Below are positions 4,482-31,400 of a DNA stretch of 46,687 bases, in pieces. The notes beneath the pieces are model-generated. The model was not told the origin of the DNA and ran no database searches. It was given only the letters and a program-made list of their open reading frames with translations. How positions within the stretch are numbered: the stretch's first letter is position 1; every line of letters starts with the position of its first letter. The translations under genes were made by a program, and so were the position numbers. The stretch spans positions 1 to 46,687 of the forward strand of contig CAWFGE010000003.1 of NCBI GenBank assembly GCA_963815195.1, given 5' to 3'. This DNA is from an uncultured Planctomycetaceae bacterium (lineage in GTDB: Bacteria; Planctomycetota; Planctomycetia; Planctomycetales; Planctomycetaceae).

Positions 4482-4548
4482 GATCGAACTCCACAAAGGG
4501 TGCAAGAAGCCCTCCGTGGCCGCGGGAATTGATTTTGTATTGCGATGC

Positions 4549-6056: not shown

Positions 6057-6069
6057 GGAAAACGCTCCT

Positions 6070-6200
6070 TTAAGAATCGGAAACATCACGGTCCAGGGAT
6101 TCGTTGTCGGCTTCACGTTTGTCTTTGCTCTGATAACTTGCGAGTGCGAGCAGCGAGAATCTCGGCCTCGTTTCCAATCGGCATCGATAAGCCTCCACAC
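6070..6200 (-). pseudogene. cas8: Detached C-terminal fragment of cas8/cas11
   Basis: Reads VWRLIDADWKRGRD, then after a 1-nt indel LLALASYQSKDKRE...DS*. The W..(A/G)RDL.LLALASY tail is typical of I-MYXAN large subunits. Joins in frame with the upstream part when the IS and one TSD copy are removed. Confidence 0.85.
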
Positions 6201-7665: not shown

Positions 7666-7960
7666 GCCTCCACACCAACCCGGGATTCTTCCGAACGTGT
7701 TTGGATCGGAAGGTCTTCACAGGGCGAGCGAAAACTTCGGCCAACGTCTCGCGGAGCAGCGGCCCGGTTTTCGTGCGCGTGATGCCGCGGCGCAGTTCTT
7801 CATTGAGATCTTCGAGACGATCGCCCCATGATCGAGAGCCGCCCCGTTCCACGGCTTCTCTTTCTCGGTAATAAAGCGCCCCGAGAGTCTCCCAAAACGC
7901 TTCGACGAACTCGCGTTCGTTTGGGTTGTCCCACATCTCGTCTTCGCGAATAAGCTCCAT
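7666..7960 (-). CDS. cas11: Putative Cas11 small subunit from an internal in-frame start in cas8 (IS-interrupted)
   Basis: Minus strand reads CAAAGGAGAGCATTG-ATG-GAG-CTT: a strong RBS before the in-frame Met (MELIREDEMWDNP...). Reconstituted length about 138 aa. Confidence 0.7.
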
Positions 7961-9289: not shown

Positions 9290-11649
9290 GATGCTCCTTC
9301 CCCCCGCGATCCGTCCCAATCGTATTCGACGGACCCGGCGGGCGCGATCGGATAACCCGCGGCCCGCGCGCTGAAGTCAAATTTGTCTTGGTACAACATG
9401 GGGATTGTCAACGGGATCACATCGTTCTTGTTGTAGTTTCCATTCGGAAGCCGCTTGAGCAATTTGAGGTCTTCCTGGCGGACCAGAGTGATGCTATTGT
9501 CGCCCTCGCGGAGAGGCATCGGCTCGCTTTGCCATCCGCCGTCCAACCACGCGGAGTATTGCGGCAATTCTTCGTTACCTTGCAGTTGGTTGATATAAGT
9601 ATTGAGCGTCGCCTGACTGCAGGGTTTCCCTGCGAGTTCTTCGACCATTCGCTCCGCCGCCAACATGTAGGCGGGATCATCGTGTTCGTGGTACGGCCGA
9701 CCGGAAAACGAGTAACAGAACGCCGGGCAAGGATTGTTCGTTTTTGCGTAACGGTTTAATCGTCCCAGCCGCTGAACGAGTGAAGGCAAGGGACACATCG
9801 CCGAGACTAACAAATCCGCACTGATGTCAAGAGACATTTCGCAGACTTGAGTCGTTATAGCAATTGCCGGGCCGTGATGCTGTCGGACGGATTTCGCATC
9901 GTCGGCATACCGAAACTCCTCAATCAACGCACCCTGCAAGCTGACACGATCACCATAGCGGTAGCGACTGTGATAGAGCAAGACTTCGGCAAACGGAAAA
10001 CGCTGTTTGGCTTCCTTGTAGGCAGCCATTGCATGGCCTACGGTGTTGCAGACCCAAAGAACCTTGTTGCCGTTTTGCTGATCGTTCGCGTGAAGAAGGG
10101 ACTCAACTTCCTTCCAACATCCATCTTCGTTTGCCTTGTGAAGCCGGTATCGCTGGACGGCTTCCATTTTCTCATCACCGGGAATCGGCTTGTCGTTCGC
10201 CCGGTCGCCAGCGACCCGCTTCAACTCGGCAAGTCGTTCCGGGGGAATCGAGGCGCTCATGATGAGGACCGGGATTCCGGGGAACGTGTCAAGAAATCGG
10301 AGCAACGCCGCGAACAATCGGCGGTCGTAGCTATGAACCTCATCGAAGACGAACGCTCCACGGATGATGGCGGGAAATGAAAACACGGGCCGGCGTTGGT
10401 TTTGAATAAGTCCCAAAACCGTATCGACGGTGCAGGCAATCACTTGTTGCCCCCAAGCGTTGAGCGAGTCCAATCTCTGTGCGCGCTCGACGGGAGGAAT
10501 GTCCGTCGATTCCCACATCATTTGCAAATCAACACCGGCCCGTCCGTGGATTAACTCCCGCTCAAGATTCGTCTGAGCGAACAAGTAGTCCTGAAATCCT
10601 GCCGAAGCTGTGCCAGTCGTGGGATACGTAAAGAACAGCTTACGCCCGACGGCATGTTTTTTCGCCCACATGTAGGCGGCTGTTGTCTTGCCGTTTCCGC
10701 ATCCCGCACTGACGATCGTTACCAGCTTCTCCGAATCGGCGACATTTTGTTGAAACTTGTGGGGCAATCGCCCCTTCAGATTGTCATCAATGACTTTTTG
10801 CAAATCAGGCAGCGTCAACTTTTGCGAGAGGGCTGAGGCAATCCACTTTTCCGGGGTCAAATCGACCTCGGCCGAACCGGGTAGTGCTGAGCCAGCAATA
10901 TCGGAAGCGACGAGCAGGATCTTGAGCAATGCCAAATCCAGCAAATTAGAGCGACCATCCGCGTTGCGCTTCCATTTCTTCCATTCCCGGTCCGACTCCC
11001 GTAACAGTCGCATCACTGACCGTTCCAAGCCATCGGGCGAATCATCGAGCGGATCGAGTGGAGGTGAGTCGTGCACGTCCCTCGGCACGGGTTCCATGTC
11101 GATATTCACCGAGTGCGCAATGCCATAGACTTCATCAAGTACGTTCTGGACTTGCGAGTGGCCAAGGTACAAGGTGACCGACTTGGGAACGTTGCGCACT
11201 CGAAACAAGGGATCCGTCGCCTCAAACTCGCGCTTCAGACGGAGTTGAAAATGATGGCCGCCGATGGCCCAAATCAAACTCCAAAACTGCCGGTCGTTGA
11301 AGGCCGATTTCAACCAGGCTGAAATGGATTCGTGCTGAGATAGCACGATGGCAGCCAGGATTTCATGGCGCACAGGCTGGGTTTTATAGTCCGACGACGA
11401 TCTCAAAATGTCCTGGAATGAACTATTGGCTTTCAGCACATCATGTAATACAGCGGCAGCGAAGAGCAGAGGCTGAAGACGCTTTCTCAGCGTTGCCCGA
11501 TCCGCTGCGACGGCGTCTGCGAGCGGGCCTTCAAGTTGACTCCAAATGGCTTGCGCCGACGTGAGAACATCGCGGCAATGTTCAGCCACGGACGGCGGGG
11601 TGCCGCCGAAGAGTCCGCGGCTTTTTGCAAAAACCTTCACCTCAATCAT
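9274..11649 (-). CDS. cas3: Cas3 HD nuclease-helicase
   Basis: AEHCRDV, LHDVLKA, GGHH HD motifs; AGCGNGKT Walker A, FDEVH, MSAS, TTQVCEMSLDIS, QRLGRLNR; frame intact. Confidence 0.96.
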   Translation of the reverse strand: MIEVKVFAKSRGLFGGTPPSVAEHCRDVLTSAQAIWSQLEGPLADAVAADRATLRKRLQPLLFAAAVLHDVLKANSSFQDILRSSSDYKTQPVRHEILAAIVLSQHESISAWLKSAFNDRQFWSLIWAIGGHHFQLRLKREFEATDPLFRVRNVPKSVTLYLGHSQVQNVLDEVYGIAHSVNIDMEPVPRDVHDSPPLDPLDDSPDGLERSVMRLLRESDREWKKWKRNADGRSNLLDLALLKILLVASDIAGSALPGSAEVDLTPEKWIASALSQKLTLPDLQKVIDDNLKGRLPHKFQQNVADSEKLVTIVSAGCGNGKTTAAYMWAKKHAVGRKLFFTYPTTGTASAGFQDYLFAQTNLERELIHGRAGVDLQMMWESTDIPPVERAQRLDSLNAWGQQVIACTVDTVLGLIQNQRRPVFSFPAIIRGAFVFDEVHSYDRRLFAALLRFLDTFPGIPVLIMSASIPPERLAELKRVAGDRANDKPIPGDEKMEAVQRYRLHKANEDGCWKEVESLLHANDQQNGNKVLWVCNTVGHAMAAYKEAKQRFPFAEVLLYHSRYRYGDRVSLQGALIEEFRYADDAKSVRQHHGPAIAITTQVCEMSLDISADLLVSAMCPLPSLVQRLGRLNRYAKTNNPCPAFCYSFSGRPYHEHDDPAYMLAAERMVEELAGKPCSQATLNTYINQLQGNEELPQYSAWLDGGWQSEPMPLREGDNSITLVRQEDLKLLKRLPNGNYNKNDVIPLTIPMLYQDKFDFSARAAGYPIAPAGSVEYDWDGSRGEGASWPRK

Positions 11650-12305
11650 GACAATTCCTCTGTTGTTTTTTCAAACGGCACAAATACGCCGCAGCCCATG
11701 TGTCTTCGGCCGCCTAATCCTTGTTCCTGCAGGGTCAGTGACTCCTCCGCGGTGAGGGCTTCGATGATGACCTCGTAGCCCACTATGCTCGCGCCTTTGA
11801 TGCCGATGGCCCGGCGTTGGGGTTCGCCCTGTTTGGGGCCGGTGGGAATCGGCGGGATGCCGAGTATGGCTTCCTCCGAAGTCCCCATCTCGCCAAGTTG
11901 TTTGCGGGCCGCGGCCAGGAAAATCTCGGGCGTCAGTTCCTCGGCCTTGGTGTCCTTGACCTTGATGCAGACGAACCGGCTGCGCAGCGCCGTCGCGGGC
12001 GTGAGGGCAAAAACCTGAGGCACGCCCACGCGAAGGCTGGTCTCCCCCACATGCAGCGACTGGCCCGCGAGCGGCAAGAGTTCCGCGATCCGATCGGCCG
12101 GCGTGCGGAGCGTCAGTCTGGACCAGGGCGTGAGCACCATTTCCTCGTCGCCGACTTTGCGGCCGCGAATCGGATGAATCGCAAACCCGTTCTCCTGATG
12201 CACAACGGGCAACACCCGCGAAACCGCCCCGAACAAGGCATACCCGTGGTCGGAGGCGATCGGTTTTTGTGCCGTCACCGCGAAAGCTAAATCGACATGG
12301 GACAT
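11646..12305 (-). CDS. cas6: Cas6 (Cmx6 type) crRNA endoribonuclease
   Basis: VDLAFAV..IASDHGYALFGAVSR and C-terminal LQEQGLGGRRHMGCGVFVP G-rich loop. Confidence 0.95.
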   Translation of the reverse strand: MSHVDLAFAVTAQKPIASDHGYALFGAVSRVLPVVHQENGFAIHPIRGRKVGDEEMVLTPWSRLTLRTPADRIAELLPLAGQSLHVGETSLRVGVPQVFALTPATALRSRFVCIKVKDTKAEELTPEIFLAAARKQLGEMGTSEEAILGIPPIPTGPKQGEPQRRAIGIKGASIVGYEVIIEALTAEESLTLQEQGLGGRRHMGCGVFVPFEKTTEELS

Positions 12306-12377
12306 TTGGGGAACCTCACATTTGTCTTGAACTTGCATCGGCAGGCACCAAACGGCGCTTGGTACGACTTTTTGACC

Positions 12378-13379
12378 TCACACATCCGCCTCCATTTTTT
12401 CATAGGCTTCAAGAGTTGCCAGACACTCGTCTCGGATTTCCGTCCGCAGGTCTTCCGGTTCCAACACCACCGCGTGCTTGCCGAAGGACTGGATGAAGGA
12501 TTTAAGCTCCACAAAGCTGGCGACTTCGACCTCGAATAGGATTGAGCCGTCTTTCTGCGGTGTGAGCTTTTGGCTGGGATGCCATTCGTATTCCCGAAGG
12601 AAACGGGCGACGGGGCGGCCGAAGCGGACGACCGCCTTCTGCTTGCGTCCGCCGTCCAGGTAAACGCCGAAAGCGTCGGCAAAGTACGCGTCCAGTTCGA
12701 AATGCTTCGGCTCGTTGAAGGGCGGGCCGGAGTTGTCGACCTCGCTGATGCGGTTGATTTTGTAGTGGCGGATTTCACGGTTGTCCGAGGAGAAGGCGAC
12801 CAGGTACAGCGCCTGCTTGTGGTACGCGATGCCGTATGGATGCACTTCATGCTCGACGGGCTCCGTGGCCCGCAGGGATTGGTAGAGAATGATGGTGATC
12901 TTGCGGTCTTCGATGGAAACCATCAGGTCGTCAATGATCTGGGCGTGTTCCGCGTAATCGGAATGGCCGAATCGTGAGCGGTACATAATGCGAGCCAGTT
13001 TCTCCAAATATTCAAGCGCCAGGTCCCCGAATGAAGCGCGGATTTTTTCAAATGCCGATTGCGAGCCCTGCCAGAACACCGTGCCCGCCAGTGGCCCGAG
13101 GAATTCGCGACCCAGATAAAGGGCCGCCGCTTCTTCAAGCGTAAAATGTCTCGTGGGGATGGAGGTCGCGTCATCGACCCGCCAGCGCTGGCGAAGATGA
13201 GCTTCTTGTTCTGGTTCGGCCAGGAAGCCAACCAACCGCAATTGATCCAAGTCCCGGCGGATTGTTTTCAGAGATACGCCGAACGCCTCCGCAAGTTCGG
13301 TAACTGTGGCCCCGTTTCTCCGCGAGGCCAGCGAGTTCAACAAGCGCCATTGCCGGGTGATTTGTTTCGTGTCCGCCAT
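12378..13379 (-). CDS. HTH-WYL-WCX transcriptional regulator
   Basis: N-terminal wHTH (TVTELAEAFGVSLKTIRRDLDQL), VHPYGIAYHKQALYLVAF..IRHYKINRI WYL core, WHPSQ...VLEPEDLR WCX tail. Confidence 0.92.
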   Translation of the reverse strand: MADTKQITRQWRLLNSLASRRNGATVTELAEAFGVSLKTIRRDLDQLRLVGFLAEPEQEAHLRQRWRVDDATSIPTRHFTLEEAAALYLGREFLGPLAGTVFWQGSQSAFEKIRASFGDLALEYLEKLARIMYRSRFGHSDYAEHAQIIDDLMVSIEDRKITIILYQSLRATEPVEHEVHPYGIAYHKQALYLVAFSSDNREIRHYKINRISEVDNSGPPFNEPKHFELDAYFADAFGVYLDGGRKQKAVVRFGRPVARFLREYEWHPSQKLTPQKDGSILFEVEVASFVELKSFIQSFGKHAVVLEPEDLRTEIRDECLATLEAYEKMEADV

Positions 13380-17817: not shown

Positions 17818-18159
17818 TCACCGAATCCCCGCGGCTTCGAGGGCATGTTTGATTCCGCCAAAATAGCGAAAGCAGGCGCAGTAGAGAGCATGGTCATCAC
17901 CTGAAATGCCTATCATCGGCAATCCGCGGCGTTCGCGCTCCCAAAGGGCTTCGATGACTTTCTCCGGATCCCATTGGCGACGGGCCAATTTCTCCAGCAA
18001 CTCGATCCCCGCGTATTGCAAAGCCGTCTCCCAGGTCCCAAAGTGCTCGCAAGCCAATTCGAGCAATTCGGGATCCTCCTCGGAAACGGCTTCTTCCGAA
18101 AGGTTTAATTCTCGTTGTTCCCGGCCGACGAGCCGGCGAATCACATCTTCACGCGACAT
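17818..18159 (-). CDS. Homing-endonuclease-associated-repeat-like protein
   Basis: Two repeats of L...A..HFG(T/S)W..AL..AG. Confidence 0.65.
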   Translation of the reverse strand: MSREDVIRRLVGREQRELNLSEEAVSEEDPELLELACEHFGTWETALQYAGIELLEKLARRQWDPEKVIEALWERERRGLPMIGISGDDHALYCACFRYFGGIKHALEAAGIR

Positions 18160-19050
18160 GGCATGATTCCTGTTCCCAGGCAGGCCCGATCGAAGTTTTG
18201 GCCCCGCCCGTGGAGAGCGAGTCGACGGCATCCGACACGAATCCACTGGCATTGAGGGCTTTTTGCCAGTTCCCAAAGTGGTATCGGGCCGCACTGGCGA
18301 GAGAATGCTCCACATCACAGGGACGTTGGATTGGCTGTCCCGCGACATGTCGATTTTGAATCTCCAGGATAATTGACGACTTGGACCACTTCCGAACCCC
18401 ATAAGACTCAAGACCCGCGGCCTCAAGAGTCTTCGTCAACCCACCCCAATATCTCCGCATGGCTCCCAACAGGGGTATGGGAAGTTGATCTCGATCGCCC
18501 CCCGTTTGACGATACCAGGCTCGTGTTTCCGAGAGGACGCGTTCTTTCGACCACACCTGGCGAGGCGTGTGTTTCAAACCCACGCTGGCCAGTGCCGCGG
18601 ACCAACTTCCAAAATAGCGGACGGCCGCCTCGTAAAAGTTGGGAGTGGGGGTCTTTTCTCCCACAGTTCGCGTATGTCGCAACAATTCGAGAGCCGCCAC
18701 AACACGCTCGCGCGTCCAGGTTTGGCGGATCGAGGCCGGAATCCCAGCGGCTCGGAGGGCTTTCCGCCAGCCTCCAAACAGTCGCTGGCCGGCATGGTAG
18801 AGGCGATAATCCGTCTTCCAGACCTCATGCAACGGCTGCCCGAGTTGCTGCCGTTTTCGGATCGCGGCCAGGACGGCGGATTTTATCCAAGGCTTTTTCG
18901 GGTTTTCCAACCCTGCGGCGCAAAGCGCCTGAGGCCAACTGTCGAAGTGACGACAGGCGGCCGCATAAAGCAGTCGGTCGTTCTTCGTGATGCCTTCAAG
19001 CGAATTCTGCTGGGCGTGCCTCCGCAGTTCGTTCACAATCCGCTCCGGCG
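18149..19050 (-). pseudogene. Multi-repeat homing-endonuclease-associated-repeat-like protein, 5' end missing
   Basis: About five W(T/S)..R(V/I)...LY.AA.RYFG.W..AL.AAG repeats; no clear start codon or RBS; abuts the recombinase fragment. Confidence 0.6.
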
Positions 19051-19450
19051 TCCTCGGGGGGATTCGGCCGCGTCGGCGTCTTCAGCTTCTGGGTAGTGCG
19101 GTTATAGATCAGCGTGCCCGCGTAGCGTTCGTTTCGCAGCCGGTTGACCACCAAACCGCCCGTCCACAGCCGGCCTCCCGGCGAGGGGATGCCGTCCGCG
19201 TTCAGTTTCTCTGCGATGCGGTGTTCCGAATGTCGCTCTTCCACGAACTCATGAAAAATGCGGCGAATCACGACCACTTCTTCGTCCGGGCCTGCGGTGA
19301 GCGTGACCCGCTGGTTTTGGATGCCTTTCCGCTGGCCCGGTTCGAGGATATGCAAGGGTTCACGGGATTCATCCAACAGGAGTCGGCTTAAGGCATAGGG
19401 CGGATTGCCGCCCGGCCAATAGCCTTGCTCGACTCGCGCGGTGTGCTGTC
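19051..19450 (-). pseudogene. Internal fragment of a large serine recombinase (recombinase domain only)
   Basis: EQGYWPGGNPPYALSRLLLD...IRRIF..IAEKLNADGIPSP..W...LRNERYAGTLIYNR; no catalytic N-terminal domain; starts just after the DUF2294 stop. Confidence 0.75.
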
Positions 19451-19472
19451 GAGGGTTGTTTTCGAAGAGGGA

Positions 19473-19868
19473 CTATTTCCTTCCGGTTTCCCGAACGCCT
19501 GGCGACTGGGCGAGCGTGAACAGCACCACTTCTTCCCCGGTGATGACGCTGATGTCGTGGTGCAAGCTGACGACTTCAACACCGGTGATTTCCTGGACTA
19601 GCGTTCCAAGGACCGGCCGCGCCGTTTCAATGAGTTGAGTTCGAACCTCTTTCAGGAGATCACGGCCTTTTTCTGCGGGGAGCGTTTTGACCAGTTGTTG
19701 TTCCGCCACCGTCAGCACTCCCTGCAGACGGACGAGGAGAAGATCGCCAATGAGATGCGCATGAATGTGCTTTGGCCCTCGCCCCATGTAGTCTTGTTCG
19801 AAACGGCTGATTCCGTTGCAAATGGCGGCTTCGATTTCTCCCTGCGTTTTCGCGGTCGTCTTTGCCAT
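19473..19868 (-). CDS. DUF2294 / MpsC-family protein
   Basis: TQGEIEAAI..FEQDYMGRGPK..LLVRLQGVLTVAEQQL..SLHHDISVITGEEVVLFTL. Confidence 0.9.
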   Translation of the reverse strand: MAKTTAKTQGEIEAAICNGISRFEQDYMGRGPKHIHAHLIGDLLLVRLQGVLTVAEQQLVKTLPAEKGRDLLKEVRTQLIETARPVLGTLVQEITGVEVVSLHHDISVITGEEVVLFTLAQSPGVRETGRK

Positions 19869-19969: not shown

Positions 19970-19998
19970 TTGTTATCTTCGGAGTCGGATGCTACAAT
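19970..19998 (+). promoter_or_regulatory. Sigma70-type promoter
   Basis: TTGTTA (19970-19975), 17-nt spacer, TACAAT (19993-19998) with an extended -10 TG. Confidence 0.6.
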
Positions 19999-20004
19999 GA
20001 TTTG

Positions 20005-20149
20005 AGATGGAGTTGCATGAAAATCTCATGCAAATCATCCTTTCGGATGACTTGATAAATCGTAACCCGATCATTTTCGGGAGACGTGTTATTTAGTAAG
20101 CCGACGCGGTGAAACACCTTCGGGTGTTTCACCGCGTCGGCTTTTTTTT
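20005..20149 (+). ncRNA. Candidate structured leader RNA (attenuator) or small RNA
   Basis: Successive hairpins between the promoter and a terminator; the 20049-20102 stem shares bases with the terminator's 5' arm. Confidence 0.5.
20098..20149 (+). terminator. Intrinsic terminator
   Basis: Perfect 21-bp stem AAGCCGACGCGGTGAAACACC / GGTGTTTCACCGCGTCGGCTT with a TTCG loop, running into T8 (20142-20149). Confidence 0.85.
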
Positions 20150-20357
20150 GTTTCGTTGCTGAGTCATTTCGGAATTGCCAATCCCTCTGCGCAACAGCCG
20201 CCCTGTTGCCTACATGCCTGACGGTCTTGCCTAGTATCCAGCCTGCTCATTGAGGGGCATTTAGAGGCGGCGAAATATGCCCGGCGTGGCACGCGGCGGC
20301 ACCCATCAGATTGAAAGTTCCAGAACGGCGGGCGTAGGACCGCCGAAAGTCATTGCC

Positions 20358-20792
20358 ATGAATAGAACCGCTCCAAATCAACCGGATCAAACCATAGAAC
20401 AACAAATTGCGAAAGTGGTCAACGCATTTCAAAAGCGAAATACCGGCCACACGCCGACGGCGGTCACCGTCGTCTTGAGCGAGGAAGCTCTGGTCATCAC
20501 GTTGCACGAAGCCTTGTCGCCCGCGGAAAAGGCTCTCGCCACGAGTGCCGAGGGGGCGGCTCAGATCCAGGAGTTTCATCGACAACTTTTCGCCGCTTCT
20601 TCCAAAACTCTCCGCCAGGAAATCCAGCGGATCACCGGAAGAGTGGTGCGCGAAGCCACGGCGGAAGTCGAACCTGTGACCGGGGCAATCGTGCATGCAT
20701 TCACCACGGGCACCGTGGTGCAGGTCTTTCTTCTCGATAAGGATCCTCGCTCGGAGACGGCGGGCGAATCCGGCCCGAAACCAACCCTTTAG
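20358..20792 (+). CDS. Second DUF2294 / MpsC-family protein
   Basis: QQIAKVVNAFQKRNTGHTPTAVTVVLSEEALVITLHEALSPAEKAL..HAFTTGTVVQVFLL. Confidence 0.85.
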   Translation: MNRTAPNQPDQTIEQQIAKVVNAFQKRNTGHTPTAVTVVLSEEALVITLHEALSPAEKALATSAEGAAQIQEFHRQLFAASSKTLRQEIQRITGRVVREATAEVEPVTGAIVHAFTTGTVVQVFLLDKDPRSETAGESGPKPTL

Positions 20793-20807
20793 AAAAGGAT
20801 TCTCCCC

Positions 20808-21125
20808 ATGTTAATTGTCTCAAGAAGTCTCGATCAATCCGTGATCGTGGGAGAGTTGGATGGTTTGGAACTGATGCTCAAGGTCACGGTGCTTGGGGTC
20901 CGCGGAAAGAAGGTGCGACTGGGATTTGAGGTGCTGTCGGGCGATCTTTCCCGGCCTGCGGTGGTGCGGGAGCCATTTTCCGCCCCTCAACCGAACCTTT
21001 CCCCGAACCCCGGCATGGCGACGACGCAGGAGTGGAATCTTCGAGAGGATCCCAGCGGCGAAGCGGACCGCACGCCTCGCCGACCCAAGCAAGCCCATGC
21101 CACAAGCGAAACACAAACGGACTGA
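20808..21125 (+). CDS. csrA: CsrA/RsmA-like carbon storage regulator with extended C-terminus
   Basis: MLIVSRSLDQSVIVG...KVTVLGVRGKKVRLGF matches the CsrA pattern; AAAGGA RBS. Confidence 0.75.
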   Translation: MLIVSRSLDQSVIVGELDGLELMLKVTVLGVRGKKVRLGFEVLSGDLSRPAVVREPFSAPQPNLSPNPGMATTQEWNLREDPSGEADRTPRRPKQAHATSETQTD

Positions 21126-21304: not shown

Positions 21305-22057
21305 ATGAGGACTTTATTTGCAGGTAGTTTGACATTAATGCTGGCAATCCTGACGGGCTGCAGTCAGGGCACTCCCGGTGGGCCGGGAACGACCGACAAG
21401 GACAGTAAAAAGCCGATGTACGGACAGGAGGACAACACCTTCAATCTGAGCGTGCCCAGGACTTCGACATCCCTTCAGCAGGGAGAGCAGTTGGAAACGA
21501 CGGTCGGAATTAAGCGAGCCAAAAACTTCGACCAGGATGTCACGCTCAAGTTCGCTGATGTTCCCAAGGGCGTGACGATCGAACCGGCCAGCCCAGTGAT
21601 TAACAGCAGCGACACGGAATCGAAAATCAAGTTCAAGGCCGGGGACGAAGCCCCATTGGGCGATTTCAAAGTCCAGGTTACGGGACATCCCAGGAAGGGA
21701 GCCGATGCCCAGATCGAGTTCAAACTGACCATTCTAGCGAATGATAGCTTCACGTTGAGCATGCCGGAGGCGACGACGCTCAAACAAGGTACTGAGCAGA
21801 CCGTCCTGATCGGCATCAAACGGGACAAGACCTTTAACCAGGATGTCCCACTAAATCTCGGCCAACTGCCCAAGGGCGTCACCGTTAAGCCGGAAGCTCC
21901 CATGATCAAGCAAGGGAGCACGGAAACGCAGGTCGCACTCGCGGCAGCAAAAGACGCCTCGTTGGGAGAATTCGGCATCAAAGTGACGGGTCATCCGGCG
22001 AAAGGGGCAGACGCCTCGAACGAGTTTAAGCTCACCGTGGTCAAAGAGGGACGGTGA
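21305..22057 (+). CDS. Lipoprotein with two tandem beta-sandwich-like repeats
   Basis: LTGC lipobox; duplicated unit (IKR.K.F.QDV.L...PKGVT..P...GHP.KGADA..EFKLT). Confidence 0.8.
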   Translation: MRTLFAGSLTLMLAILTGCSQGTPGGPGTTDKDSKKPMYGQEDNTFNLSVPRTSTSLQQGEQLETTVGIKRAKNFDQDVTLKFADVPKGVTIEPASPVINSSDTESKIKFKAGDEAPLGDFKVQVTGHPRKGADAQIEFKLTILANDSFTLSMPEATTLKQGTEQTVLIGIKRDKTFNQDVPLNLGQLPKGVTVKPEAPMIKQGSTETQVALAAAKDASLGEFGIKVTGHPAKGADASNEFKLTVVKEGR

Positions 22058-22133
22058 GCGACGACGATGTGGCAATTTAACGCCGCTCGCGGGCGGCAAA
22101 CCAAATGTCTTTTTGAGAAGAAAGCGTGATGTC

Positions 22134-22424
22134 ATGAGTATCGGTAGCATTCTCAGTTGGATCGTCTGCGGATTGGTGGTGGGGATTTGTGCGCGGTTTC
22201 TGGTGCCCGGACGGCAGAGCATGAGTCTGCCGATGACGGTTGTGCTCGGCATCGCCGGTGCTTTGGTGGGCGGGTTTCTCTATTCCCTGATTTGGAGCGG
22301 TTCCGTCGAGCCATTCTCTCTCAGCACCCAGAACTGGTATGGCTGGATCGTCGCGATTTTAGGCGCGATGCTCCTGGTGTGGGCGTTTCCCTTCTTCAGT
22401 TCGAACCGGTGGAGGAACAACTAA
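22134..22424 (+). CDS. GlsB/YeaQ/YmgE-family (transglycosylase-associated) membrane protein
   Basis: ILSWIVCGLVVGICARFLVPG...LGIAGALVGG...AILGAMLL. Confidence 0.88.
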   Translation: MSIGSILSWIVCGLVVGICARFLVPGRQSMSLPMTVVLGIAGALVGGFLYSLIWSGSVEPFSLSTQNWYGWIVAILGAMLLVWAFPFFSSNRWRNN

Positions 22425-22518
22425 GTCGGCATTCATAAGTCGGCATTCATAAGTCGGCATTCATAAGTCGGCATTCATAAGTCGGCATTCATAAGTCGGC
22501 ATTCATAAGTCGGCATTC
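22422..22518 (+). repeat. 14-bp tandem repeat TAAGTCGGCATTCA, 6 full copies plus 13 bp
   Basis: Counted directly; the first unit starts at the upstream gene's TAA stop. Confidence 0.95.
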
Positions 22519-22616
22519 GGCGTATTCAAAACACGGACTCAACCGGCCCGTGCATCACGGAGGTACGTTGCTTTCGTGAACGGTTCAAGAAAGTTTTTCA
22601 ATGAAAGACAGCCATA

Positions 22617-23333
22617 ATGTTTAAGCGAACGTTTTTCACGAGTGCGATCATTTTAGGCCTCGCCGGCCCGCTAATATTCGTTGACGCCATTGCTCAGGGC
22701 GAGAACGAACCAAAGCGTGCGCAGCCTCACCAAGCCGCGTCCAATGAAGCGGCGATACCCGCCTGTCTGGCGAAACTGGATCTTACGAAGCAGCAGGAGA
22801 CACAGATCAAAAACATTGTCCGAGATTATGACAAGGATCTCTCCATGGTTTGGACGCAGTTCGGCGTTCGGTACATGGACACCATCCGCACCGAGGCATT
22901 GTTGTTGGCCGCCATCGAGGACAAACTGACGGACGCCCAAAGGCAACGAGTCCGTGAACAACGCCGCAAGACAGCCCAGCATCAGAAGTCTCTAGAGAGC
23001 ACAGATGCTAAGCCAAACCAAGCGACGAGTAAGCCGGTGAGTGCCGTCGAAGAGGAGCTTTCGATCGTTGGCGTCGCGCTCACAGCCGAACAACAAATTG
23101 CTGCCGACGCACTCCAGGAGAAGTATCTCAGCCAGCTTCGTTCTCTAAATCGGGACATTGAAGGCCTTCACATGCGGCTTGTCTCCCTGGAAGCTGACAA
23201 ACTCGTGGAAATCGAGAAAGTCCTCACCAAGGACCAACTGCTCCAGTTCCGTAAAATCCGGCAAAACGCTCCGGCGACATCGAAGATCGCGGCTCGCCAA
23301 ACTGGCGGCGGTCGTCCTCCAAGTACCGAGTAA
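22617..23333 (+). CDS. Secreted helical protein, Spy/CpxP-like
   Basis: Signal peptide; LTxxQ motifs (LDLTKQQ, LTDAQR, LTAEQQ, VLTKDQ). Confidence 0.65.
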   Translation: MFKRTFFTSAIILGLAGPLIFVDAIAQGENEPKRAQPHQAASNEAAIPACLAKLDLTKQQETQIKNIVRDYDKDLSMVWTQFGVRYMDTIRTEALLLAAIEDKLTDAQRQRVREQRRKTAQHQKSLESTDAKPNQATSKPVSAVEEELSIVGVALTAEQQIAADALQEKYLSQLRSLNRDIEGLHMRLVSLEADKLVEIEKVLTKDQLLQFRKIRQNAPATSKIAARQTGGGRPPSTE

Positions 23334-23465
23334 TGTCATAATAGAACCTGCCTCTTGCGGTATGAAATCTTGATGAGCAAATGCCTGTGAGTTGTCCCCG
23401 TGCCGCAAGGGGCAGAGTTTTTCTTTCTTGGGAATTCAAATCAACGCTTCCGAAAGGAGCCTATC

Positions 23466-23906
23466 GTGTTAAAAACCATTCGCCTTCCATCGCTTGTGAG
23501 TGCAGTCACTTTGGCCGTCTGGCTGGTTACTCCCGCGATGATGAGTTCGAACCAAGCTGCCGCTCAGGGGATTCGAATCCAATTTGGCAGCAACCCTTCC
23601 GGCTATTACAACGGATACGGCAGCGGATATTATGGGTATGGCTCCGGCTACGGAATCGGATACGCTTCTCCTTACACGAGCTATGGATACGGTTCCGGCT
23701 ACACGGGCTATGGATACGGGGTTTACGGACACCGTTCGGCTGGTCTTTACACCTACCCGCGCACGAACATTTACGGCTATGGATACGGCACGCCCTCTTA
23801 TCTATATTCCCCTAGCATACAGTTTCAAGGCAGGGCCTTCGGCCCTAACTATAACCATTTCGGGGGCTATAATTCTTATTATCCGTACGGGTTTCGAAAT
23901 CATTGA
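23466..23906 (+). CDS. Secreted Gly/Tyr-rich protein
   Basis: AAAGGAG RBS before GTG 23466; signal-like N-terminus; GYGSGY low-complexity body. Confidence 0.7.
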   Translation: MLKTIRLPSLVSAVTLAVWLVTPAMMSSNQAAAQGIRIQFGSNPSGYYNGYGSGYYGYGSGYGIGYASPYTSYGYGSGYTGYGYGVYGHRSAGLYTYPRTNIYGYGYGTPSYLYSPSIQFQGRAFGPNYNHFGGYNSYYPYGFRNH

Positions 23907-23981
23907 TCGTCCCAAGAAGATTACACATCGATTGGGCGGAGTTTTTTCGATTAGGCAATTCTCAATGAAAGGTAACCAGAC

Positions 23982-24179
23982 ATGAAAAAGATGACGCTTT
24001 TCAAGGTGGTAATCGTATTGGTGCTCTGCTTTGTCGGGCTGGGCTTCTACCAGGGCTGGTTCGTCCTGTCGAGTCGCGGTGACAATAGTGCCGGAGACCA
24101 CAAAGTTGACATCAACCTGACGGTAGACCCGGACAAAGCGAAAGAGGACGCCAAGAAGGTGGGAGCCGGTGAACTATGA
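23982..24179 (+). CDS. Small membrane-anchored hypothetical protein
   Basis: Single TM segment followed by GFYQGWF..INLTVDPDKAKED. Confidence 0.65.
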   Translation: MKKMTLFKVVIVLVLCFVGLGFYQGWFVLSSRGDNSAGDHKVDINLTVDPDKAKEDAKKVGAGEL

Positions 24180-24260
24180 GCGGACACGGTGTGGGGCCAA
24201 GTTCACGCCGGTCCTCCAAAGACGGCATAAGGAGAACTGACAAATGTTCCGGAGTGAGTA

Positions 24261-25103
24261 ATGACTGATCGTATCTTGGAGCAATTCGACGAGGCCCCGC
24301 CTCTTTTAGAGCATCCCCATCCGCCAGCCCCGCCGCCTTCCATCGAGGGAGAACGGCCGGCGGATCCTGAACCGGAGAACGTTCCGCCCCTTCAACAACT
24401 CCGGATTTACGGCCATTCCTCGCTCCTCTACTGGTGGCCGGTTTTCGTCGTCGGATATGCCATGGCTCTCATCACCTATGGCGAGGGCCACGGATACCAA
24501 GTCGGCCAAAGCCCAACCTGGATTCACCCCAGCAGCAATTTAGGATTGATTTTCTTCGTCACCCTGTTTGTGGTCATCGTGATCACCAATTTCTCCGTGC
24601 GCGGCATGGCCTCCGGGATGGTCATCATGGGAATGGTGCTCCTGACCGTGCTGCTGGCCTTCGTCGGTTGGTGGGACGAGGTCTTTCGCTGGCTTGGCGG
24701 TCTGGAAATTCACCTCGACCTGGGAGCCTATTTTTGGTTTTCCACCCTGATGCTCGTGCTATGGGCCGTGACTCTGTTCGGGGTGGATCGCCTGAGTTAT
24801 TGGGAAGTGACTCCGGGCCAACTGACTTATAAGACGCACTTGGGCGGCGGCTCGAAAAGTTATCCCGCGCAAGGCATGGGATTGGAGAAATACCGCGACG
24901 ATCTGTTCCGGCACTGGCTCCTCGGGCTGGGTTCCGGAGACCTGCAGATTCTTACGTCCGGAGCCACCCGCCGACAGATTGACGTGCGCAACGTTTTGTT
25001 CATTAGCTCAAAGAATCCGGGCGATGCAGACCCTCATCGCCGCAGTTCCCGAAGGAAATTCGGAGTCGCCTTGATACGGCTCTATCCGCAACAAGGCATA
25101 TAA
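24261..25103 (+). CDS. Multi-pass membrane hypothetical protein (possible 3' frameshift)
   Basis: About four hydrophobic segments; HSSLLYWWPV and DDLFRHWLLGLGSGDL blocks. Confidence 0.7.
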   Translation: MTDRILEQFDEAPPLLEHPHPPAPPPSIEGERPADPEPENVPPLQQLRIYGHSSLLYWWPVFVVGYAMALITYGEGHGYQVGQSPTWIHPSSNLGLIFFVTLFVVIVITNFSVRGMASGMVIMGMVLLTVLLAFVGWWDEVFRWLGGLEIHLDLGAYFWFSTLMLVLWAVTLFGVDRLSYWEVTPGQLTYKTHLGGGSKSYPAQGMGLEKYRDDLFRHWLLGLGSGDLQILTSGATRRQIDVRNVLFISSKNPGDADPHRRSSRRKFGVALIRLYPQQGI

Positions 25104-25186
25104 AATCCACATCGAGTGGGGACTCCCGACTGCGACGTTCACGGCAGCGACCTCCACCGAATCTCTAACCCTTGAAAAGGTGATTT

Positions 25187-25345
25187 ATGTCTCTCGTTAC
25201 TATTCTACTGATTGTTTTGGTTTTGATGCTTCTAGGTGTGCTCCCTGCGTGGGGCCATAGCCGCAACTGGGGTTACGGACCGAGCGGCGGGCTGGGGTTA
25301 ATCGTGCTCGTGCTGGTCGTTCTTCTTCTCATGGGACGTGTTTGA
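25187..25345 (+). CDS. DUF3309-family small membrane protein (52 aa, absent from the ORF track)
   Basis: Hand translation: MSLVTILLIVLVLMLLGVLPAWGHSRNWGYGPSGGLGLIVLVLVVLLLMGRV*; AAAAGGTG RBS. Confidence 0.88.
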   Translation: MSLVTILLIVLVLMLLGVLPAWGHSRNWGYGPSGGLGLIVLVLVVLLLMGRV

Positions 25346-25405: not shown

Positions 25406-28400
25406 ATGAGAAGGACGCGTAAATTGCCTGTTCAAAACATCCCGAAGAAGCTCTTGCGGATGATGTCGTGGCGACGGTCTGCCGATCGGAAGTCCATTCG
25501 GACGCACCCCCCAGACGAACAGCCGTTGCGAGCGGAGCTTTTTAGCATTGATCAGCTCGAGCGGCACGCCAAGTCGATCGCGGCTTCGCACCAATTGGCT
25601 AAGGGCCCGGCCCGCGATAAGTTGTTGCCGCGACTTGACGAGAACGAGTGCGTGCTGCTCGAAACCTACGACCTGGTGTCAACGGCTGCGGACCAGAATC
25701 GCCGGATGGAGCCGGCCGCGGAATGGCTGCTCGATAACTTCTACCTCGTCGAAGAACAGATCCGCGTGATTCGGCGGCTGTTGCCGCCATCCTTTAGCCG
25801 CGAGTTGCCCCGTCTGGCCAGCGGCTCCGTCGCCAGTTTTCCACGCGTTTATGGCATCGCCTTGGAACTGATCGCTCATGTGGATGGGCGGATCGATGCC
25901 GTCCACCTCAACAGCTTCATCTCCGCATATCAGTCGGTCGCGTCGCTTAAGCTGGGCGAATTGTGGGCGCTCCCGCTGATGCTGCGGCTGGCGCTGATGG
26001 AGAACTTGCGGCGTGTCGCGGTGCGTATCGCCGCCGCCAGGCGGGACCGCGACTTGGCTGGCGATTGGGCCGAGCGGATGGTCAATATTGTGGAAGAGAA
26101 GCCGACGGACTTGATCCTGGTTTTGGCGGACATGGCCCGCGCCGACCCGCCCTTGTCGGGCGCATTCCTGGCGGAACTGACGCGGCATTTGCAGGGGCAG
26201 AACCCCAACTTTGCATTCGCCAATAGCTGGATCGAACATCGTCTGGCCGATGTCGGCCAGACCACCGAACTGCTCGTGCGTGCCGAAGGACAATCCCAGG
26301 CAGCCGATCAAGTTTCGATCGGCAACAGCATCAATAGCCTACGGTTTTTGAATTCCAATGATTGGCGAAAGTTCGTTGACGAGCACAGCGTGGTCGAACG
26401 GACCCTGTCAAGCGATCCTGCAGGGATCTATGCCCAGATGGATTTTGCGACCCGCGACCGCTACCGGCACGCGGTCGAAGGCATCGCCCGGCGCAGCCGG
26501 ATGACCGAGTACGAAGTGGCGCGAAAGGCGGTGGAACTGGCCGGAGAGCCCCGCGAACGGCCCAGCGACCGCGCAGGGCACGTCGGATATTTCCTGGTCG
26601 ATCGCGGACGCCCGGTGCTGGAGCGGTGCGCCGAGATGCAGCTTACTCCTGCCGTGGTGCTTGAAAAGCTTCGGCGGAAGTTTCCGCTGACGTGTTACCT
26701 GACCATCATCGGGCTAGTGACGCTCGCGAGCGCGCTCTTTTTCTGTTCTGGTCACACGAGCAGGAAGCAGGTTGGTTTTCGCTGCTGGTGCTTGCCGTCC
26801 CCGCGCTCATCTGCGCGTCCCAATTGGGGGTGGGTCTCGCGAATTGGCTGGCGACGCAAGTACTCAGCCCCCAATCGTTGCCCCGAATGGAGTTTGAGGC
26901 GGGCATCCCTCCCGAGCACCGTACTTTGGTGGCGGTGCCCACCATGCTGGCAAGCGCCGCCGGCATCGAGCATTTGCTGGAAGGGCTGGAAGTGCGGTAT
27001 CTCGCCAATCGCGACCCGTGCCTGCATTTCGCCTTGGTGACGGACTTTGTCGATGCCGCGGCAGAGACGCTGCCCTGCGATGCGGAACTCGTGCGCCTGC
27101 GCACGAGGGCATCGAACGATTAAACGAGAAGTACGCAAATGTTGGCGGCGATACTTTTTTTCTCTTTCACCGCGCACGCCACTGGAATGCCCAGGAAGGC
27201 GTCTGGATGGGTCTCGAGCGCAAGCGAGGCAAGTTGGCGGATCTGAACGCCCTGCTGCGCGGCGAGGAAGGACAGTTTCCCGGACATTGCCGGCCGGATT
27301 GCGATCCTGGAGGGCGTGCGCTATGTCATCACGCTCGATACCGACACGCAGTTGCCGCGCGATGCGGCGCGGGAGATGGTGGGGGCAATTGCCCATCCCC
27401 TCAATCAGCCCGTCTTCGATGCCCAATCCAAACGCATCGTCGATGGCTACACTATTTTGCAACCTCGAGTTGGCGTCAGCTTGCCCAGCGCGCAGCGCTC
27501 GCGGTTCGTGCAACTCTTTGCGGACGATGCCGGAATCGATCCGTACACGCGCGTCGTGTCGGACGTGTATCAGGATCTATTTGGCGAAGGTTCGTTCATC
27601 GGCAAGGGAATTTACGATGTCGATTCCTTTGAACGCTGCACCGGCGACTTACCCGAAAACGCGATTCTCAGCCACGACTTGATCGAGGGTGCGTATTGCC
27701 GTTCCGCTCTGCTCAGCGACGTGACGTTGTACGAAGAACATCCTTCACGGTACGTAGCGGACGCGGCCCGCCGGCATCGTTGGATGCGCGGCGACTGGCA
27801 GATTTCTGCGTGGTTGTTGCCTTGGGTGCGCGGACGGTCGGGCCAACGCATTCGCAACTCTCTCACACTGCTGTCGCGGTGGAAGATTTTCGACAACTTG
27901 CGCCGCAGCCTGGTGCCGGTGGCCATGTTGCTCGTTCTGCTCATTTCCTGGTTCACTTCGCCGGGCATCGCGGGATCCGCGTTGCTGTTCCTGGTGAGCG
28001 TGGTCCTGCTGCCAAGGTTGCTGACCGTCGTGGCGGACCTGCTTCGCAAGCCGGCGGACTTGCCGTTGGGGATGCATGTCCGCGTGACGCTGCAATCATT
28101 AGAGCGGCCGCTCGCGCAGAGTGTGTTGACATTCGTGTTTTTGCCTTACGAAGCTTACATCAGCGTCGATGCGATCCTGCGCACGCTGGTGCGCATGGGG
28201 TGGACCAAACGGCGGTTGCTCGAATGGAAGACCGCCAGCGATTCGGAACAAAGCAGCGGCCAACTGGCGGCTTCGTTTCGCTCGATGGCCATTGCGCCCG
28301 CTCTGGGAATCCTGGTGTTCGTCGCGCTCGGCTTTTTCCATCGCGAGATCTTGCCTTTTGCGGCGCCGTTGACCGCCGCGTGGATTGTTTCCCCGCTTGT

Positions 28401-31400
28401 GGCCTGGTGGTTGAGCCGGCCAATCCCTCGGCGTGTGCCACGACTCTCCGAAAATCAGCATCGCTTTCTTCGGATGCTATCGCGAAAGACATGGCGGTAT
28501 TTCGAGGAATTTGTCACGGCGGAGGAGAATTGGTTGCCGCCGGATAACATTCAGCTGAACCCTGAGCGAATCGTCGCGCCGCGCACCAGTCCCACGAACA
28601 TCGGCATGGCGCTGCTCGCTGACCTGGCGGCCTACGACTTCGGCTATTGCTCCGCCGGTCAATTCCTGACCCGGACGCAGCACACCTTTGAAACGCTGTC
28701 CCGCATGGAGAGGTATCGAGGACATTTCTTTAATTGGTACAACACGCGCTCGCTTGCGCCCTTGCATCCGCGTTATGTCTCGATGGTCGATAGCGGCAAT
28801 CTGGCGGCGAACCTTTTGGTCCTCAGCAGCGGCTGCACCGAACTCAGTGTGAGGCGCGCATCCTTCCACCACGGATATTCGGCGGCCTCTCGCGATACAC
28901 TGCGCGTGCTCTGGGACATGGCCTGCAGCAAGGAGGAAGCGCTGGTCGAAGCCAAGCTGCTTCGCAAGATCGAATGCCAATTGGAAGATTTGGATCACGC
29001 TCCCGCAACATTGGCTGCGGCCAATGCGCTCCTCTCCCAGCTGAGCCTGCTTGCGGCCGAACTGACTGCCACTGCGGACAGCGATGCCGAGTTCGCTTGG
29101 TGGGCGAATGCCTATGAGCGATCCTGCCGCGACCATCAAGCCGACCTGCTGCATCTGGCGAGTTGGCTCAGCTTACCCGTGCCGCCTGATGAGATTTGGG
29201 AAAGCGGTTCCGGCGAGCAGGTCGATCAGCGGAACACGTTGCAAGAGATGCTCAATCGTCTGGACGCCTCGGCAACGCTGCAGGATGTCGCAGAATTGGA
29301 AGGAACATCACGACCGCTGCTCGAAGCATTGCTGCAAGAGGCGTCCGCGGAAGCCAAAGGTTGGCTCATGCAATTGAACACCGCACTCGCCACGGCTTCC
29401 GAACATGCCACCGCGAGGATCCAGGCATTTGAGGAACTCGCCGCACAGTGTCGCGAGCTGGCCGACATGGATTTCGGCTTGCTGTACGATTCCACGCGTG
29501 ATTTATTCGCCATCGGCTACAACGTCAGCGAGCGGCGGCTCGATGCGAGCTTTTACGATCTTTTGGCATCTGAGGCGCGGCTTGGCAGCTTTATCGTTGA
29601 TCGCGCAGGGGCATTGTGGGCAGGAGCATTGGTTCGCACTCGGCCGGCTGCTTGACCAGCGCGGGGCATGTGCCGGCTCTGTTGAGCTGGAGCGGCTCGA
29701 TGTTCGAGTACTTGATGCCGCTTTTGGTCATGCCCAACTATGAAAACACGCTGCTCGATCGGACTTATCACGCCGTCGTGCGCCGGCAGATCGAATATGG
29801 CCGGCAGCGCGGCGTTCCGTGGGGCATCTCCGAGTCCGGTTACAACACCATCGATCAGCACAAACCTATCAATACCGAGCATTTGGCGTGCCCGGGACTG
29901 GGGTTGAAGCGCGGGCTGGCGGAAGACTTGGTGATTGCACCCTATGCGAGCGTGCTGGCGCTGATGGTCGAGCCGGAGGCGGCCTGCCGCAACCTTGGAA
30001 CGGCTGGCGGCCGACGGCCAGCAAGGCGACTACGGCTTCTACGAAGCGGTCGACTACACTCCCTCCCGATTGCCGCCAGGGATGCGATCAGCGTCACCGT
30101 GCGGCAGTTCATGGCCCATCACGAAGGGATGAGCTTGCTGTCGCTGGCGTACTTGTTGCTTGACAAGCCCATGCAGCGCCGCTTCCTGGCCGATCCCATG
30201 CTGCGGGCGGCCGAACTGCTGCTGCAAGAGCGCGTTCCCAAAGCCACCGCGCCCGTCTTTCCTCACGCCAGTGAAGCGAGCGCCACGCGACTTGCTTCGG
30301 GGGAAGAAACCGGCACCATGCGCGTCTTCACCGATCCCAACAGTGCGGCGGTGGAAGCCCATCTGCTTTCCAACGGCCGTTACCATGTGGCCGTGACAAG
30401 CGCCGGTGGCGGTTACAGTCGCTGGTGAGACCTGGCGGTCACGCGATGGCGCGAGGATGCCACTCGCGATAGCTACGGCAGCTTCTGCTACGTGCGCGAT
30501 GTGGACAGCGGCGAGGTGTGGTCCAACGCCTGGCAACCGACGCTCAAGTCGCCCCAAGACTTATGAAGCGATCTTCACGCAAGCGCGGGCCGAGTTTCGC
30601 CGCACCGACCACCAGATCGAAACGTACACGCAGATCAGCGTCTCGCCGGAGGATGACATCGAACTGCGGCGCGTGACGCTGACGAACCGCTCCGAGACGC
30701 CGACGCACGATTGAGATCACCAGTTATGCGGAGGTCGTGCTGGCGACGCAGGCGCAGGACGAGTCGCATCCCGCGTTCAGCAATCTCGTTCGTGCAGACC
30801 GAACTGGTTCCGGGCCGTCAGGCGATTTATTGCACGCGCCGTCCGCGCTCGGCGGAAGAGCAGCCTCCGTGGATGACGCACATGATGATGGTGCGGGGCA
30901 TCACGATCGGCGAGCCGTCTTACGAAACCGATCGGATGCGGTTTATTGGTCGGCAGCGGACGCTCGCATCCCCTCAGCGCGCTCGATGGCAAATCGCCCC
31001 TTTCCAACACCGCAGGGCCGGTCCTCGATCCGATCGTCTGCATCCGCCAGACAGTGTGGATCTGCAGCCGAATGAGGCCGTGCGGATCGACATCGTCACC
31101 GGCGTCGCCGAGTCACGCGCCGGCGTTGAAGCGCTGACCGAGAAGTACAGCGATTCCAGCCTGGCTGATCGCGTTTTCGACCTCGCCTGGACGCACGGCC
31201 AAATCCTGCTTCAACAACTCGAGCGCTTCCGAAGCGGATGCGCAGGTCTATGGCCGCCTGGCGGGTTCGATCATTTATGCCTCGTCGCTCAGGCGGGCCA
31301 AGGCCAGCATTCTCAGCCGCAATCGACAGGGACAATCGGGGCTTTGGGGCTATGGAATCTCGGGCGATTTGCCGATTGTATTGGTGCGGATTCGCGACCA

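Follow-up and report, generated by a model that had tools for sequence, protein, structure and literature searches.

Gene Organization around the Leader

The window, i.e., the whole 46,687-nt stretch analysed here (contig CAWFGE010000003.1, GCA_963815195.1), to which all window coordinates refer, contains two divergent genes of the DUF2294/MpsC family that flank an RNA leader; their divergence had been noted in the preliminary description of this DNA. The gene on the reverse strand (19473..19868), divergent from the leader, encodes a 131-aa type A protein, DUF2294-A (PF10057, E = 1.5e-35), a candidate RNA-binding antiterminator. The first gene 3' of the leader terminator (20358..20792, forward strand) encodes a 144-aa type B protein, DUF2294-B (PF10057, E = 4.2e-22). 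With bit scores of 122 and 78.8 against a Pfam cut-off of 23 bits, both are members of the family. Of the proposed DUF2294-csrA operon, the first gene is confirmed as DUF2294. The next gene (20808..21125, forward strand), encoding a small CsrA-like protein with a long C-terminal tail, gives a weak CsrA match: the window protein scores below the Pfam and NCBIfam cut-offs, and two homologues exceed the Pfam cut-off. The ribosome-binding site of this csrA-like gene (window 20790-20810) lies inside a possible GGA-UUC-UCC mini-hairpin, which, judging from the sequence, could serve translational coupling or autoregulation. Farther downstream, a same-strand cluster (21305..25345, forward strand) combines small stress-type genes with several unassigned ORFs and includes, according to Pfam scans, a Transgly_assoc gene (22113-22424), a weak Spy-like gene (22617-23333) and a DUF3309 gene (25187-25345), all on the forward strand; it is probably co-transcribed with the leader. 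None of the window ORFs that were scanned was identified as DabAB.

Immediately to the left of the DUF2294 genes and their leader (window 18149-19582), an HNH-repeat ORF and recombinase remnants suggest an island edge. The window starts with a CRISPR array of 31 repeats (6-2150), two spacers of which (558 and 1743) begin almost identically, followed by a type I-MYXAN cas operon with a WYL regulator (3055-13379; Cas1, Cas5, DevR/Cas7, Cas8a1, Cas3 and Cas6). To the right, GT2-like and GH94 domains delineate a cyclic beta-glucan synthase region (25406-34050), presumably NdvB-like, whose split across several overlapping ORFs reflects either real decay or assembly indels, and an ORF at 43026-43793 contains RTX calcium-binding nonapeptide repeats.

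The leader is preceded by a sigma70-type promoter, TTGTTA-N17-TACAAT (19970..19998, forward strand), the sole sigma70-like match between 19000 and 21500. A scan of 3.5 kb gave 2 matches against 1.2 expected by shuffling and the window promoter alone is therefore not significant; homologues keep its spacing. Transcription would start near 20005. Folding predicts a 5' hairpin, P0, of free sequence and outside the conserved core (20013..20033), followed by an antiterminator rod (20043..20104), assigned from folding and covariation and composed of a basal helix UCGG/CCGA, an internal loop AUG/AAG, a helix ACU/AGU and upper stems, and by an intrinsic terminator of 21 bp and 8 U (20098..20149), whose perfect stem spans 20098-20143 (z = -11); all three lie on the forward strand. 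The seven nucleotides AAGCCGA are both the start of the terminator and the 3' strand of the antiterminator base. Promoter, P0 hairpin, terminator and an inner stem CGT-AA-CCCGA / TCGGG-AG-ACG had all been recognized in the preliminary description and are present. The start codon of DUF2294-B lies 210 nt beyond the terminator in the window copy, compared with about 50 nt usually, which leaves room for a non-sigma70 promoter; the promoter scan found no sigma70-like site in 20150-20357.

A Conserved Antiterminator Overlapping a Terminator

A second copy of the element occurs in the same genome on contig C8, likewise with a divergent DUF2294 gene adjoining, giving two copies in total. By BLAST the stretch is present in 11 of 61 related genomes, and conservation among these relatives is confined to about 20041-20148. 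A degenerate pattern search of GTDB genomes yielded at least 138 stretches; among the matches listed, the titles of 137 loci named Planctomycetota in 133 cases, Chloroflexota in one and a single deltaproteobacterial contig in three. After duplicate removal the set comprised at least 167 distinct copies, nearly all from Planctomycetota, of which 103 were aligned. One exact pattern match was also found in viral contigs (L299:3001-3101), with a DUF2294-A gene adjoining the RNA.

The conserved pairing is UCGG-AUG-ACU / AGU-AAG-CCGA (20043-20104), of which about 7 nt are common to the terminator; the G and A of the AUG/AAG loop are invariant, and the upper stems covary and carry A-G-rich internal loops. 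This register differs from the one first proposed, in which GACTTGATAAAT (20049-20060) paired with ATTTAGTAAGCC: that stem forms 10 of 12 pairs in the window copy alone, with a mean of 5.5 of 12 over 167 copies, and is calculated at -13.8 kcal/mol as against -24.2 kcal/mol for the conserved register. The overlap between antiterminator and terminator that had been described is thus real, but it lies one helix further out (U20043-G20046 with C20101-A20104). In the same way, the hairpin TCATCC/GGATGA exists in the sequence but is particular to the window copy. As a conserved anti-antiterminator it was rejected, since RTCC occurs upstream in 4 of 167 copies and the upstream pairing of GG was 0.43 compared with 0.48 in shuffles (166 copies); no conserved anti-antiterminator was found across the copies. 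A free-sequence upstream hairpin shows modest enrichment, with 25% of 165 copies having z < -2 versus 5% of 164 controls.

Over the 103 aligned copies the rod is 86% paired with 189 double (compensatory) changes, compared with 79% and 55 in shuffles, and the terminator is 94% paired with 213 double changes. RNAalifold recovers the upper stems and the terminator unaided, so that the covarying homologues called for in the preliminary description were obtained for these parts. The basal helices were preset by the search pattern and the planctomycete alignment therefore cannot show their covariation; free core pairs do covary in the cross-phylum set described below, whose inner pairs are required by the descriptor. 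Where the core loop exchanges C and G, G partners occur in 8 of 11 copies versus 38 of 156 (p = 0.002, ignoring kinship). Calculated folds of the 167 nascent leaders contain the basal helix with a probability exceeding 0.5 in 83% of cases, and those of the full-length leaders never do; the terminator is favored over the antiterminator by a median of 9.6 kcal/mol (10.9 in the window copy). Mutually exclusive folds with a more stable terminator represent the layout of an off-by-default attenuator.

In the window, Rfam 15 gave nothing at the gathering threshold and, by E-value, generic hairpin matches only, in agreement with the earlier statement that no known family was recognized. Nor did any Rfam model match the element in 11 non-Planctomycetota DUF2294 loci, 14 planctomycete loci and the Anoxybacillus copy.

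Its multi-copy, patchy distribution and the recombinase remnants adjoining the window copy would also suit a small mobile or repeat element with a terminator and without any function in regulation. We find this barely credible: the stems show compensatory changes, the promoter keeps a fixed spacing despite unrelated sequence, the window's own genome holds just two copies, both adjoining DUF2294, and the same core recurs in distant phyla. Covariation and context have already largely refuted such a reading.

Promoter Spacing and Target Genes

In 82 of 157 copies a promoter of the form TTG-N-TAnnnT lies upstream, with its end at a distance of 20-70 nt; the two control windows gave 1 and 0. Within about 450 nt, 59 of 97 copies are followed by an identified same-strand gene: Pfam accounts for 39, from 70 candidate ORFs picked by hand, and DUF2294-B for 21, with one common to both. 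A convergent Pfam gene follows 1 of 97 (84 candidate ORFs examined). Besides DUF2294-B, the targets encode CsbD, Dps/ferritin, Hsp20, YflT, BON, DUF1328, Transgly_assoc, fasciclin, PRC-barrel, KaiC-like and STAS proteins, a sigma factor and kinases, families that we take to be a general-stress set. Direct sensing of Na+ or bicarbonate, which had been put forward for this RNA, finds no support for the window copy, whose targets are stress genes. Two contig-level metatranscriptome runs from one study contained gene relatives of mostly <90% identity, and none covers the leader.

The element thus combines a conserved, mutually exclusive antiterminator and terminator with a promoter before it and same-strand genes after it. 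Covarying homologues, fixed promoter spacing, a position 5' of same-strand genes, exclusive folds and the absence of an Rfam match strongly uphold the earlier view of an undescribed cis-acting attenuator.

The preliminary description had also considered a free sRNA of about 145 nt. Here the terminated 145-nt RNA would itself be the product, either a free sRNA or a sponge for DUF2294 or the CsrA-like protein, and the downstream genes would be self-promoted. An own promoter, a strong terminator, up to 7 copies per genome and a CsrA-like gene near 29 of 86 loci fit this scheme, as do short RNAs detected at the Bacillus subtilis site, where the accessible part of PMC2965217 tabulates a 158-nt RNA, ncr181, before ndhF. 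However, the copies point into same-strand genes far more often than into convergent ones (59 versus 1 of 97), the distance from the terminator to the start of DUF2294-B is usually about 50 nt, and the window has no sigma70-like site between 20150 and 20357. In addition, the conserved core is destroyed in the terminated fold, and the GGA lies in a stem, its A not being conserved across phyla. We consider an sRNA very unlikely.

Linkage to DUF2294 Genes in Planctomycetota

Of 86 copies, 56 have a DUF2294 gene in the examined flanks, 31 of them with the gene upstream and divergent and 25 with it just downstream, and the other 30 have none there; a CsrA-like gene is nearby in 29 of the 86 loci. 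Up to 7 RNA copies occur per genome, with multiple copies lying far from DUF2294. Among 150 class-wide genomes, 18 contain the RNA, 33 contain DUF2294 and 15 contain both; all 15 genomes with an RNA score of at least 70 bits have DUF2294, as do 18 of the remaining 135. The three RNA-only class genomes have the weakest RNA scores, and the two that were inspected have altered cores. In a phylum sample the protein was present in 4 of 5 RNA-positive genomes. In G116, a genome that is 89% complete, the RNA scores a strong 82 bits and DUF2294 was not found. The genome model search, limited to 24 strictly filtered candidates in each genome, overlooks short variants, and all of the co-occurrence counts are raised by kinship and island linkage. 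Given the patchy distribution, island linkage can account for the co-occurrence without any binding.

In a quick tree (145 columns), the A proteins that adjoin the long-form RNA form one clade (SH-aLRT 99), the B proteins form another, and the DUF2294 proteins of 16 of 18 RNA-negative genomes belong to a third. Automatic labels misplaced 19 B-type rows; label statistics were therefore left unused and assignments come from the clade drawing alone. In this tree, the long RNA form tracks one DUF2294 clade.

Third-clade genes mostly lie ahead of DabAB, SbtA, carbonic anhydrase or isocitrate dehydrogenase, and in the RNA-negative class genomes a match to the short-core descriptor (see below) directly follows DUF2294 in 1 of 18. 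At nine third-clade loci we observed another conserved leader, whose terminator starts with the same A-G-G-C. Its consensus is GCUGA-n-AGCC...GUGACCCG...GGA-n-AGGCC plus terminator; it follows the other-clade DUF2294 gene (L285:4535-4632, L287, L288 and L291-L296), precedes carbonic anhydrase, SbtA or isocitrate dehydrogenase, and has no Rfam match.

A Short Core beyond the Planctomycetes

In two Bacillota records, the DNA 3' of DUF2294 contains a minimal core, GG-NN-GAY / RUA-NR-CC, with an overlapping terminator; this core takes up about 14 nt in one helix and its apical part is free. The Anoxybacillus core precedes an SbtA permease and the Acetoanaerobium core an MFS gene. We ran a descriptor of this arrangement (GG-NN-G-x-y / y'-x'-A-N-R-CC plus terminator) on 80 metagenome and 4 plasmid loci. 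Among the 45 non-redundant loci with enough flank (Bacillota-type query), 22 had a match within 200 nt after DUF2294, two of which had helped to define the descriptor; elsewhere it gave 16 matches in 990 kb (0.003 per 200 nt), and altered descriptors matched 0, 4, 1 and 2 of the 45 loci. The other 23 loci have no core directly after DUF2294; in some of them the core lies in the leader of the operon or takes a variant form. Matches in the leaders of ndhF-dabA operons lie 4.8-5.1 kb upstream of DUF2294 (L216, L218, L219 and L221). A match also adjoined DUF2294 in 6 of 8 further Planctomycetota genomes that the model had missed.

Behind the short-form matches lie genes for SbtA, DabB/DabA, PEP carboxykinase and SulP as well as P-type ATPases, an MFS protein, argininosuccinate synthase and unassigned ORFs. 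At DUF2294 loci whose variant cores the descriptor misses, the genes that follow include those for PurE and pyruvate:ferredoxin oxidoreductase. The short RNA form of other Planctomycetota lies ahead of PEPCK or PEPCK-like genes and of argininosuccinate synthase (L181:5022-6917, L182:6064-7971, L185:6470-8245 and L183:2169-3467). On a Staphylococcus pettenkoferi plasmid, an IS6-flanked ndhF-dabA-DUF2294 operon (L194:3182-3507) has a terminator before ndhF and no intact core. For Staphylococcus aureus, the part of PMC2790875 at hand tabulates RsaX05 as a possible cis-acting leader of ndhF. Small ORFs of 160-196 aa also occur in DUF2294-linked carbon operons (L293:4394-4984, L295:4549-5103, L204:7499-7981 and L218:6471-6962); Pfam and NCBIfam gave no match for those of L293, L204 and L218, nor did a Pfam scan for that of L295, and some of them may be degenerate beta-carbonic anhydrases like B. 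subtilis YbcF.

This genomic context across phyla supports the link to DUF2294 drawn in the earlier proposal, in which a DUF2294/MpsC protein was a plausible reader. The short-form DUF2294 gene often lies upstream of the terminator and hence is not itself gated, as expected of a regulator. Since the same core occurs with other DUF2294 clades ahead of transporters of bicarbonate and enzymes that use CO2, inorganic-carbon status is the likely ancestral signal, as judged from the target genes of the short form.

The DUF2294 Protein

The AF2 model of DUF2294-A shows a confident alpha/beta domain (pLDDT 95), and the protein has a net charge of -1. The A and B types are clear homologues by sequence comparison. 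Of 121 non-B homologues, 79-95% carry a basic residue at each of five positions (R30, R47, K73, R76 and R84); in 34 B proteins H, T, Q, H and S occupy these positions, and the S-x-H-x-D-x-S strand is lost as well. A PDB sequence search with DUF2294-A returned one match, a designed protein (E 0.68), Foldseek found nothing at E 0.001 or better, and the protein atlas gave no usable match outside PF10057. In structure comparisons the best Z was 6.4, and RbfA reached 5.3, which is within noise (rmsd 3.7 over 87 residues); the absence of a clear fold match does not show a new fold. A predicted complex between DUF2294-A and DUF2294-B scored 0.26, below the mark of 0.32, a value that speaks neither for an interaction nor against it.

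Proposed Mechanism

We propose, with a probability of roughly 0.58, that the leader is an attenuator in the off state by default and that DUF2294-A, acting as an RNA-binding antiterminator, opens it. In the nascent leader the rod would first close its basal helix (UCGG/CCGA) and then lose those bases to the terminator, whose fold is more stable by about 10 kcal/mol, and transcription would end near 20149. Active DUF2294-A would bind the small core, consisting of the GG/CC pairs, the 2x2 loop with its G-A and the A-U pair, and hold the helix shut, as LicT does in holding a RAT, such that polymerase reads into the genes for DUF2294-B, the CsrA-like protein and the stress proteins. The RNA copies elsewhere in the genome would form a regulon read in trans. 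It is tempting to speculate that DUF2294-B, which would be produced only when polymerase reads through and is devoid of the basic residues, acts as a feedback modulator. By analogy, the smallness of the core and the free variation of its apical part are reminiscent of a protein site.

Data from S. aureus bear on the direction of this control. As far as the accessible part of PMC6689103 goes, ΔmpsC has no growth defect in air, mpsC is dispensable for the complementation of E. coli, and mpsA is down 1.7-2.5-fold in 5% CO2. Normal growth of ΔmpsC in air counts against an obligatory activator of mpsAB, which should not allow such growth, and fits better with a riboswitch, a repressing DUF2294 or a leaky leader. 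Other observations given above also count against our proposal: DUF2294-A has no clear match among known RNA-binding folds such as KH/RbfA, its net charge is negative, some copies and G116 have the RNA and no DUF2294 found, and about half of the 45 DUF2294 loci have no core directly after the gene.

If the sign were reversed, DUF2294 would promote termination in a PyrR/TRAP-like manner when CO2 or another signal is plentiful, and the unbound leader would be read through. This would account for both the growth of ΔmpsC and the lower mpsA at 5% CO2, and the nascent leader does form the antiterminator helix unaided in the calculations. The conserved core, however, exists solely in the antiterminator fold, unaided, the terminator is the more stable fold by about 10 kcal/mol, and the copies revealed no conserved anti-antiterminator, so that we regard termination by DUF2294 as quite improbable.

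Alternatively, the RNA itself could bind a small molecule or ion as an ON riboswitch, for example a metabolite that accumulates when CO2 is short or a stress signal, with DUF2294 merely co-regulated or co-inherited. The conserved purines that enrich the internal loops, several copies per genome far from DUF2294, the RNA of G116 without DUF2294 and the ΔmpsC strain without a growth phenotype (PMC6689103, as far as accessible) speak for such a switch. It would, however, have to work with a cross-phylum core of merely about 14 nt in one helix under a free apical part, and a single ligand would have to suit carbon-supply and general-stress regulons alike. Moreover, DUF2294 is often upstream of the terminator or divergent, hence ungated, and the RNA form follows the protein clade. 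On balance a riboswitch is unlikely.

Extending antitermination by DUF2294 to the whole family, DUF2294/MpsC/YbcI proteins may be a new group of RNA-binding antiterminators that sense CO2/bicarbonate status and, by way of a single very small RNA core, gate inorganic-carbon pumps and carboxylases in phyla ranging from Bacillota to Planctomycetota, with a lineage of planctomycetes having rewired the system into a master switch of a general-stress regulon; we offer this tentatively and would sooner doubt than assert it. The rewired version, equally conjectural, would have a longer RNA and would use the pseudo-paralogue DUF2294-B and the CsrA-like protein as feedback parts.

Comparison with Known Systems

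The literature searched, with subscription papers and supplements outside its scope, contained no paper linking DUF2294/MpsC to an RNA element, and no regulatory or RNA-binding role for MpsC or YbcI was described there; nothing on a leader mechanism appears in the accessible parts of PMC4448311, PMC7857571 and PMC11394868. The leader RNA is therefore undescribed in the sources searched; motif catalogues or term-seq supplements may list it. On the tuning of bicarbonate pumps to CO2 in heterotrophic bacteria, a 2026 B. subtilis preprint notes that the mechanisms are still to be explored; MpsC is without an assigned function. If true, our proposal would add a new antiterminator protein family and an RNA family spanning several phyla, and with one small protein and one leader of about 60 nt it can be tested cheaply in a model organism. 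The planctomycete version would be, if true, a post-initiation switch for the general stress response. General stress responses are usually run by sigma factors.

The window proteins belong to the same family, PF10057, as S. aureus MpsC and B. subtilis YbcI, and the leaders of staphylococcal-type ndhF-dabA-DUF2294 operons (L216, L218, L219 and L221) contain the core; unlike mpsABC, the window has two DUF2294 paralogues flanking the RNA. The element is also, like CsrB/RsmZ sRNAs, a multi-hairpin RNA near a csrA-like gene, but it has no repeated loop GGA (ANGGA) motifs, its GGA lies in stems and its position is in cis. ON-type transcriptional riboswitches, including the Na+ and Li+ classes, have a closing helix in common with the terminator and form multi-copy regulons. 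The element likewise shares its closing helix with the terminator and its copies form a multi-copy set, whereas no Rfam riboswitch model matches, the core is minimal and the protein partner is constant.

Attenuators of the HutP, GlpP and PyrR types have a small regulator gene upstream of the terminator that it controls. The DUF2294 - RNA - SbtA/DabAB loci have the same gene order; in contrast, searches with DUF2294 gave no sequence or fold match to these regulators, and the PyrR RNA model gives 17 bits against 54. In the RAT systems, the available part of PMC5393181 describes a hairpin with a variable apex and conserved internal loops, whose 3' end overlaps a favored terminator by 6-10 nt. As in the RAT of BglG/SacY/LicT (bglG-cis-reg, RF03530), the window element overlaps its terminator, here by about 7 nt and with a gap of about 10 kcal/mol. 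It is nevertheless no member of that family: it has no RAT sequence match (14 bits against 80 for the Anoxybacillus copy), the flanking proteins contain PF10057 only and no CAT or PRD domain, and the targets are stress or inorganic-carbon genes. We regard the element as a form of RNA-based attenuation whose protein reader is probably new.
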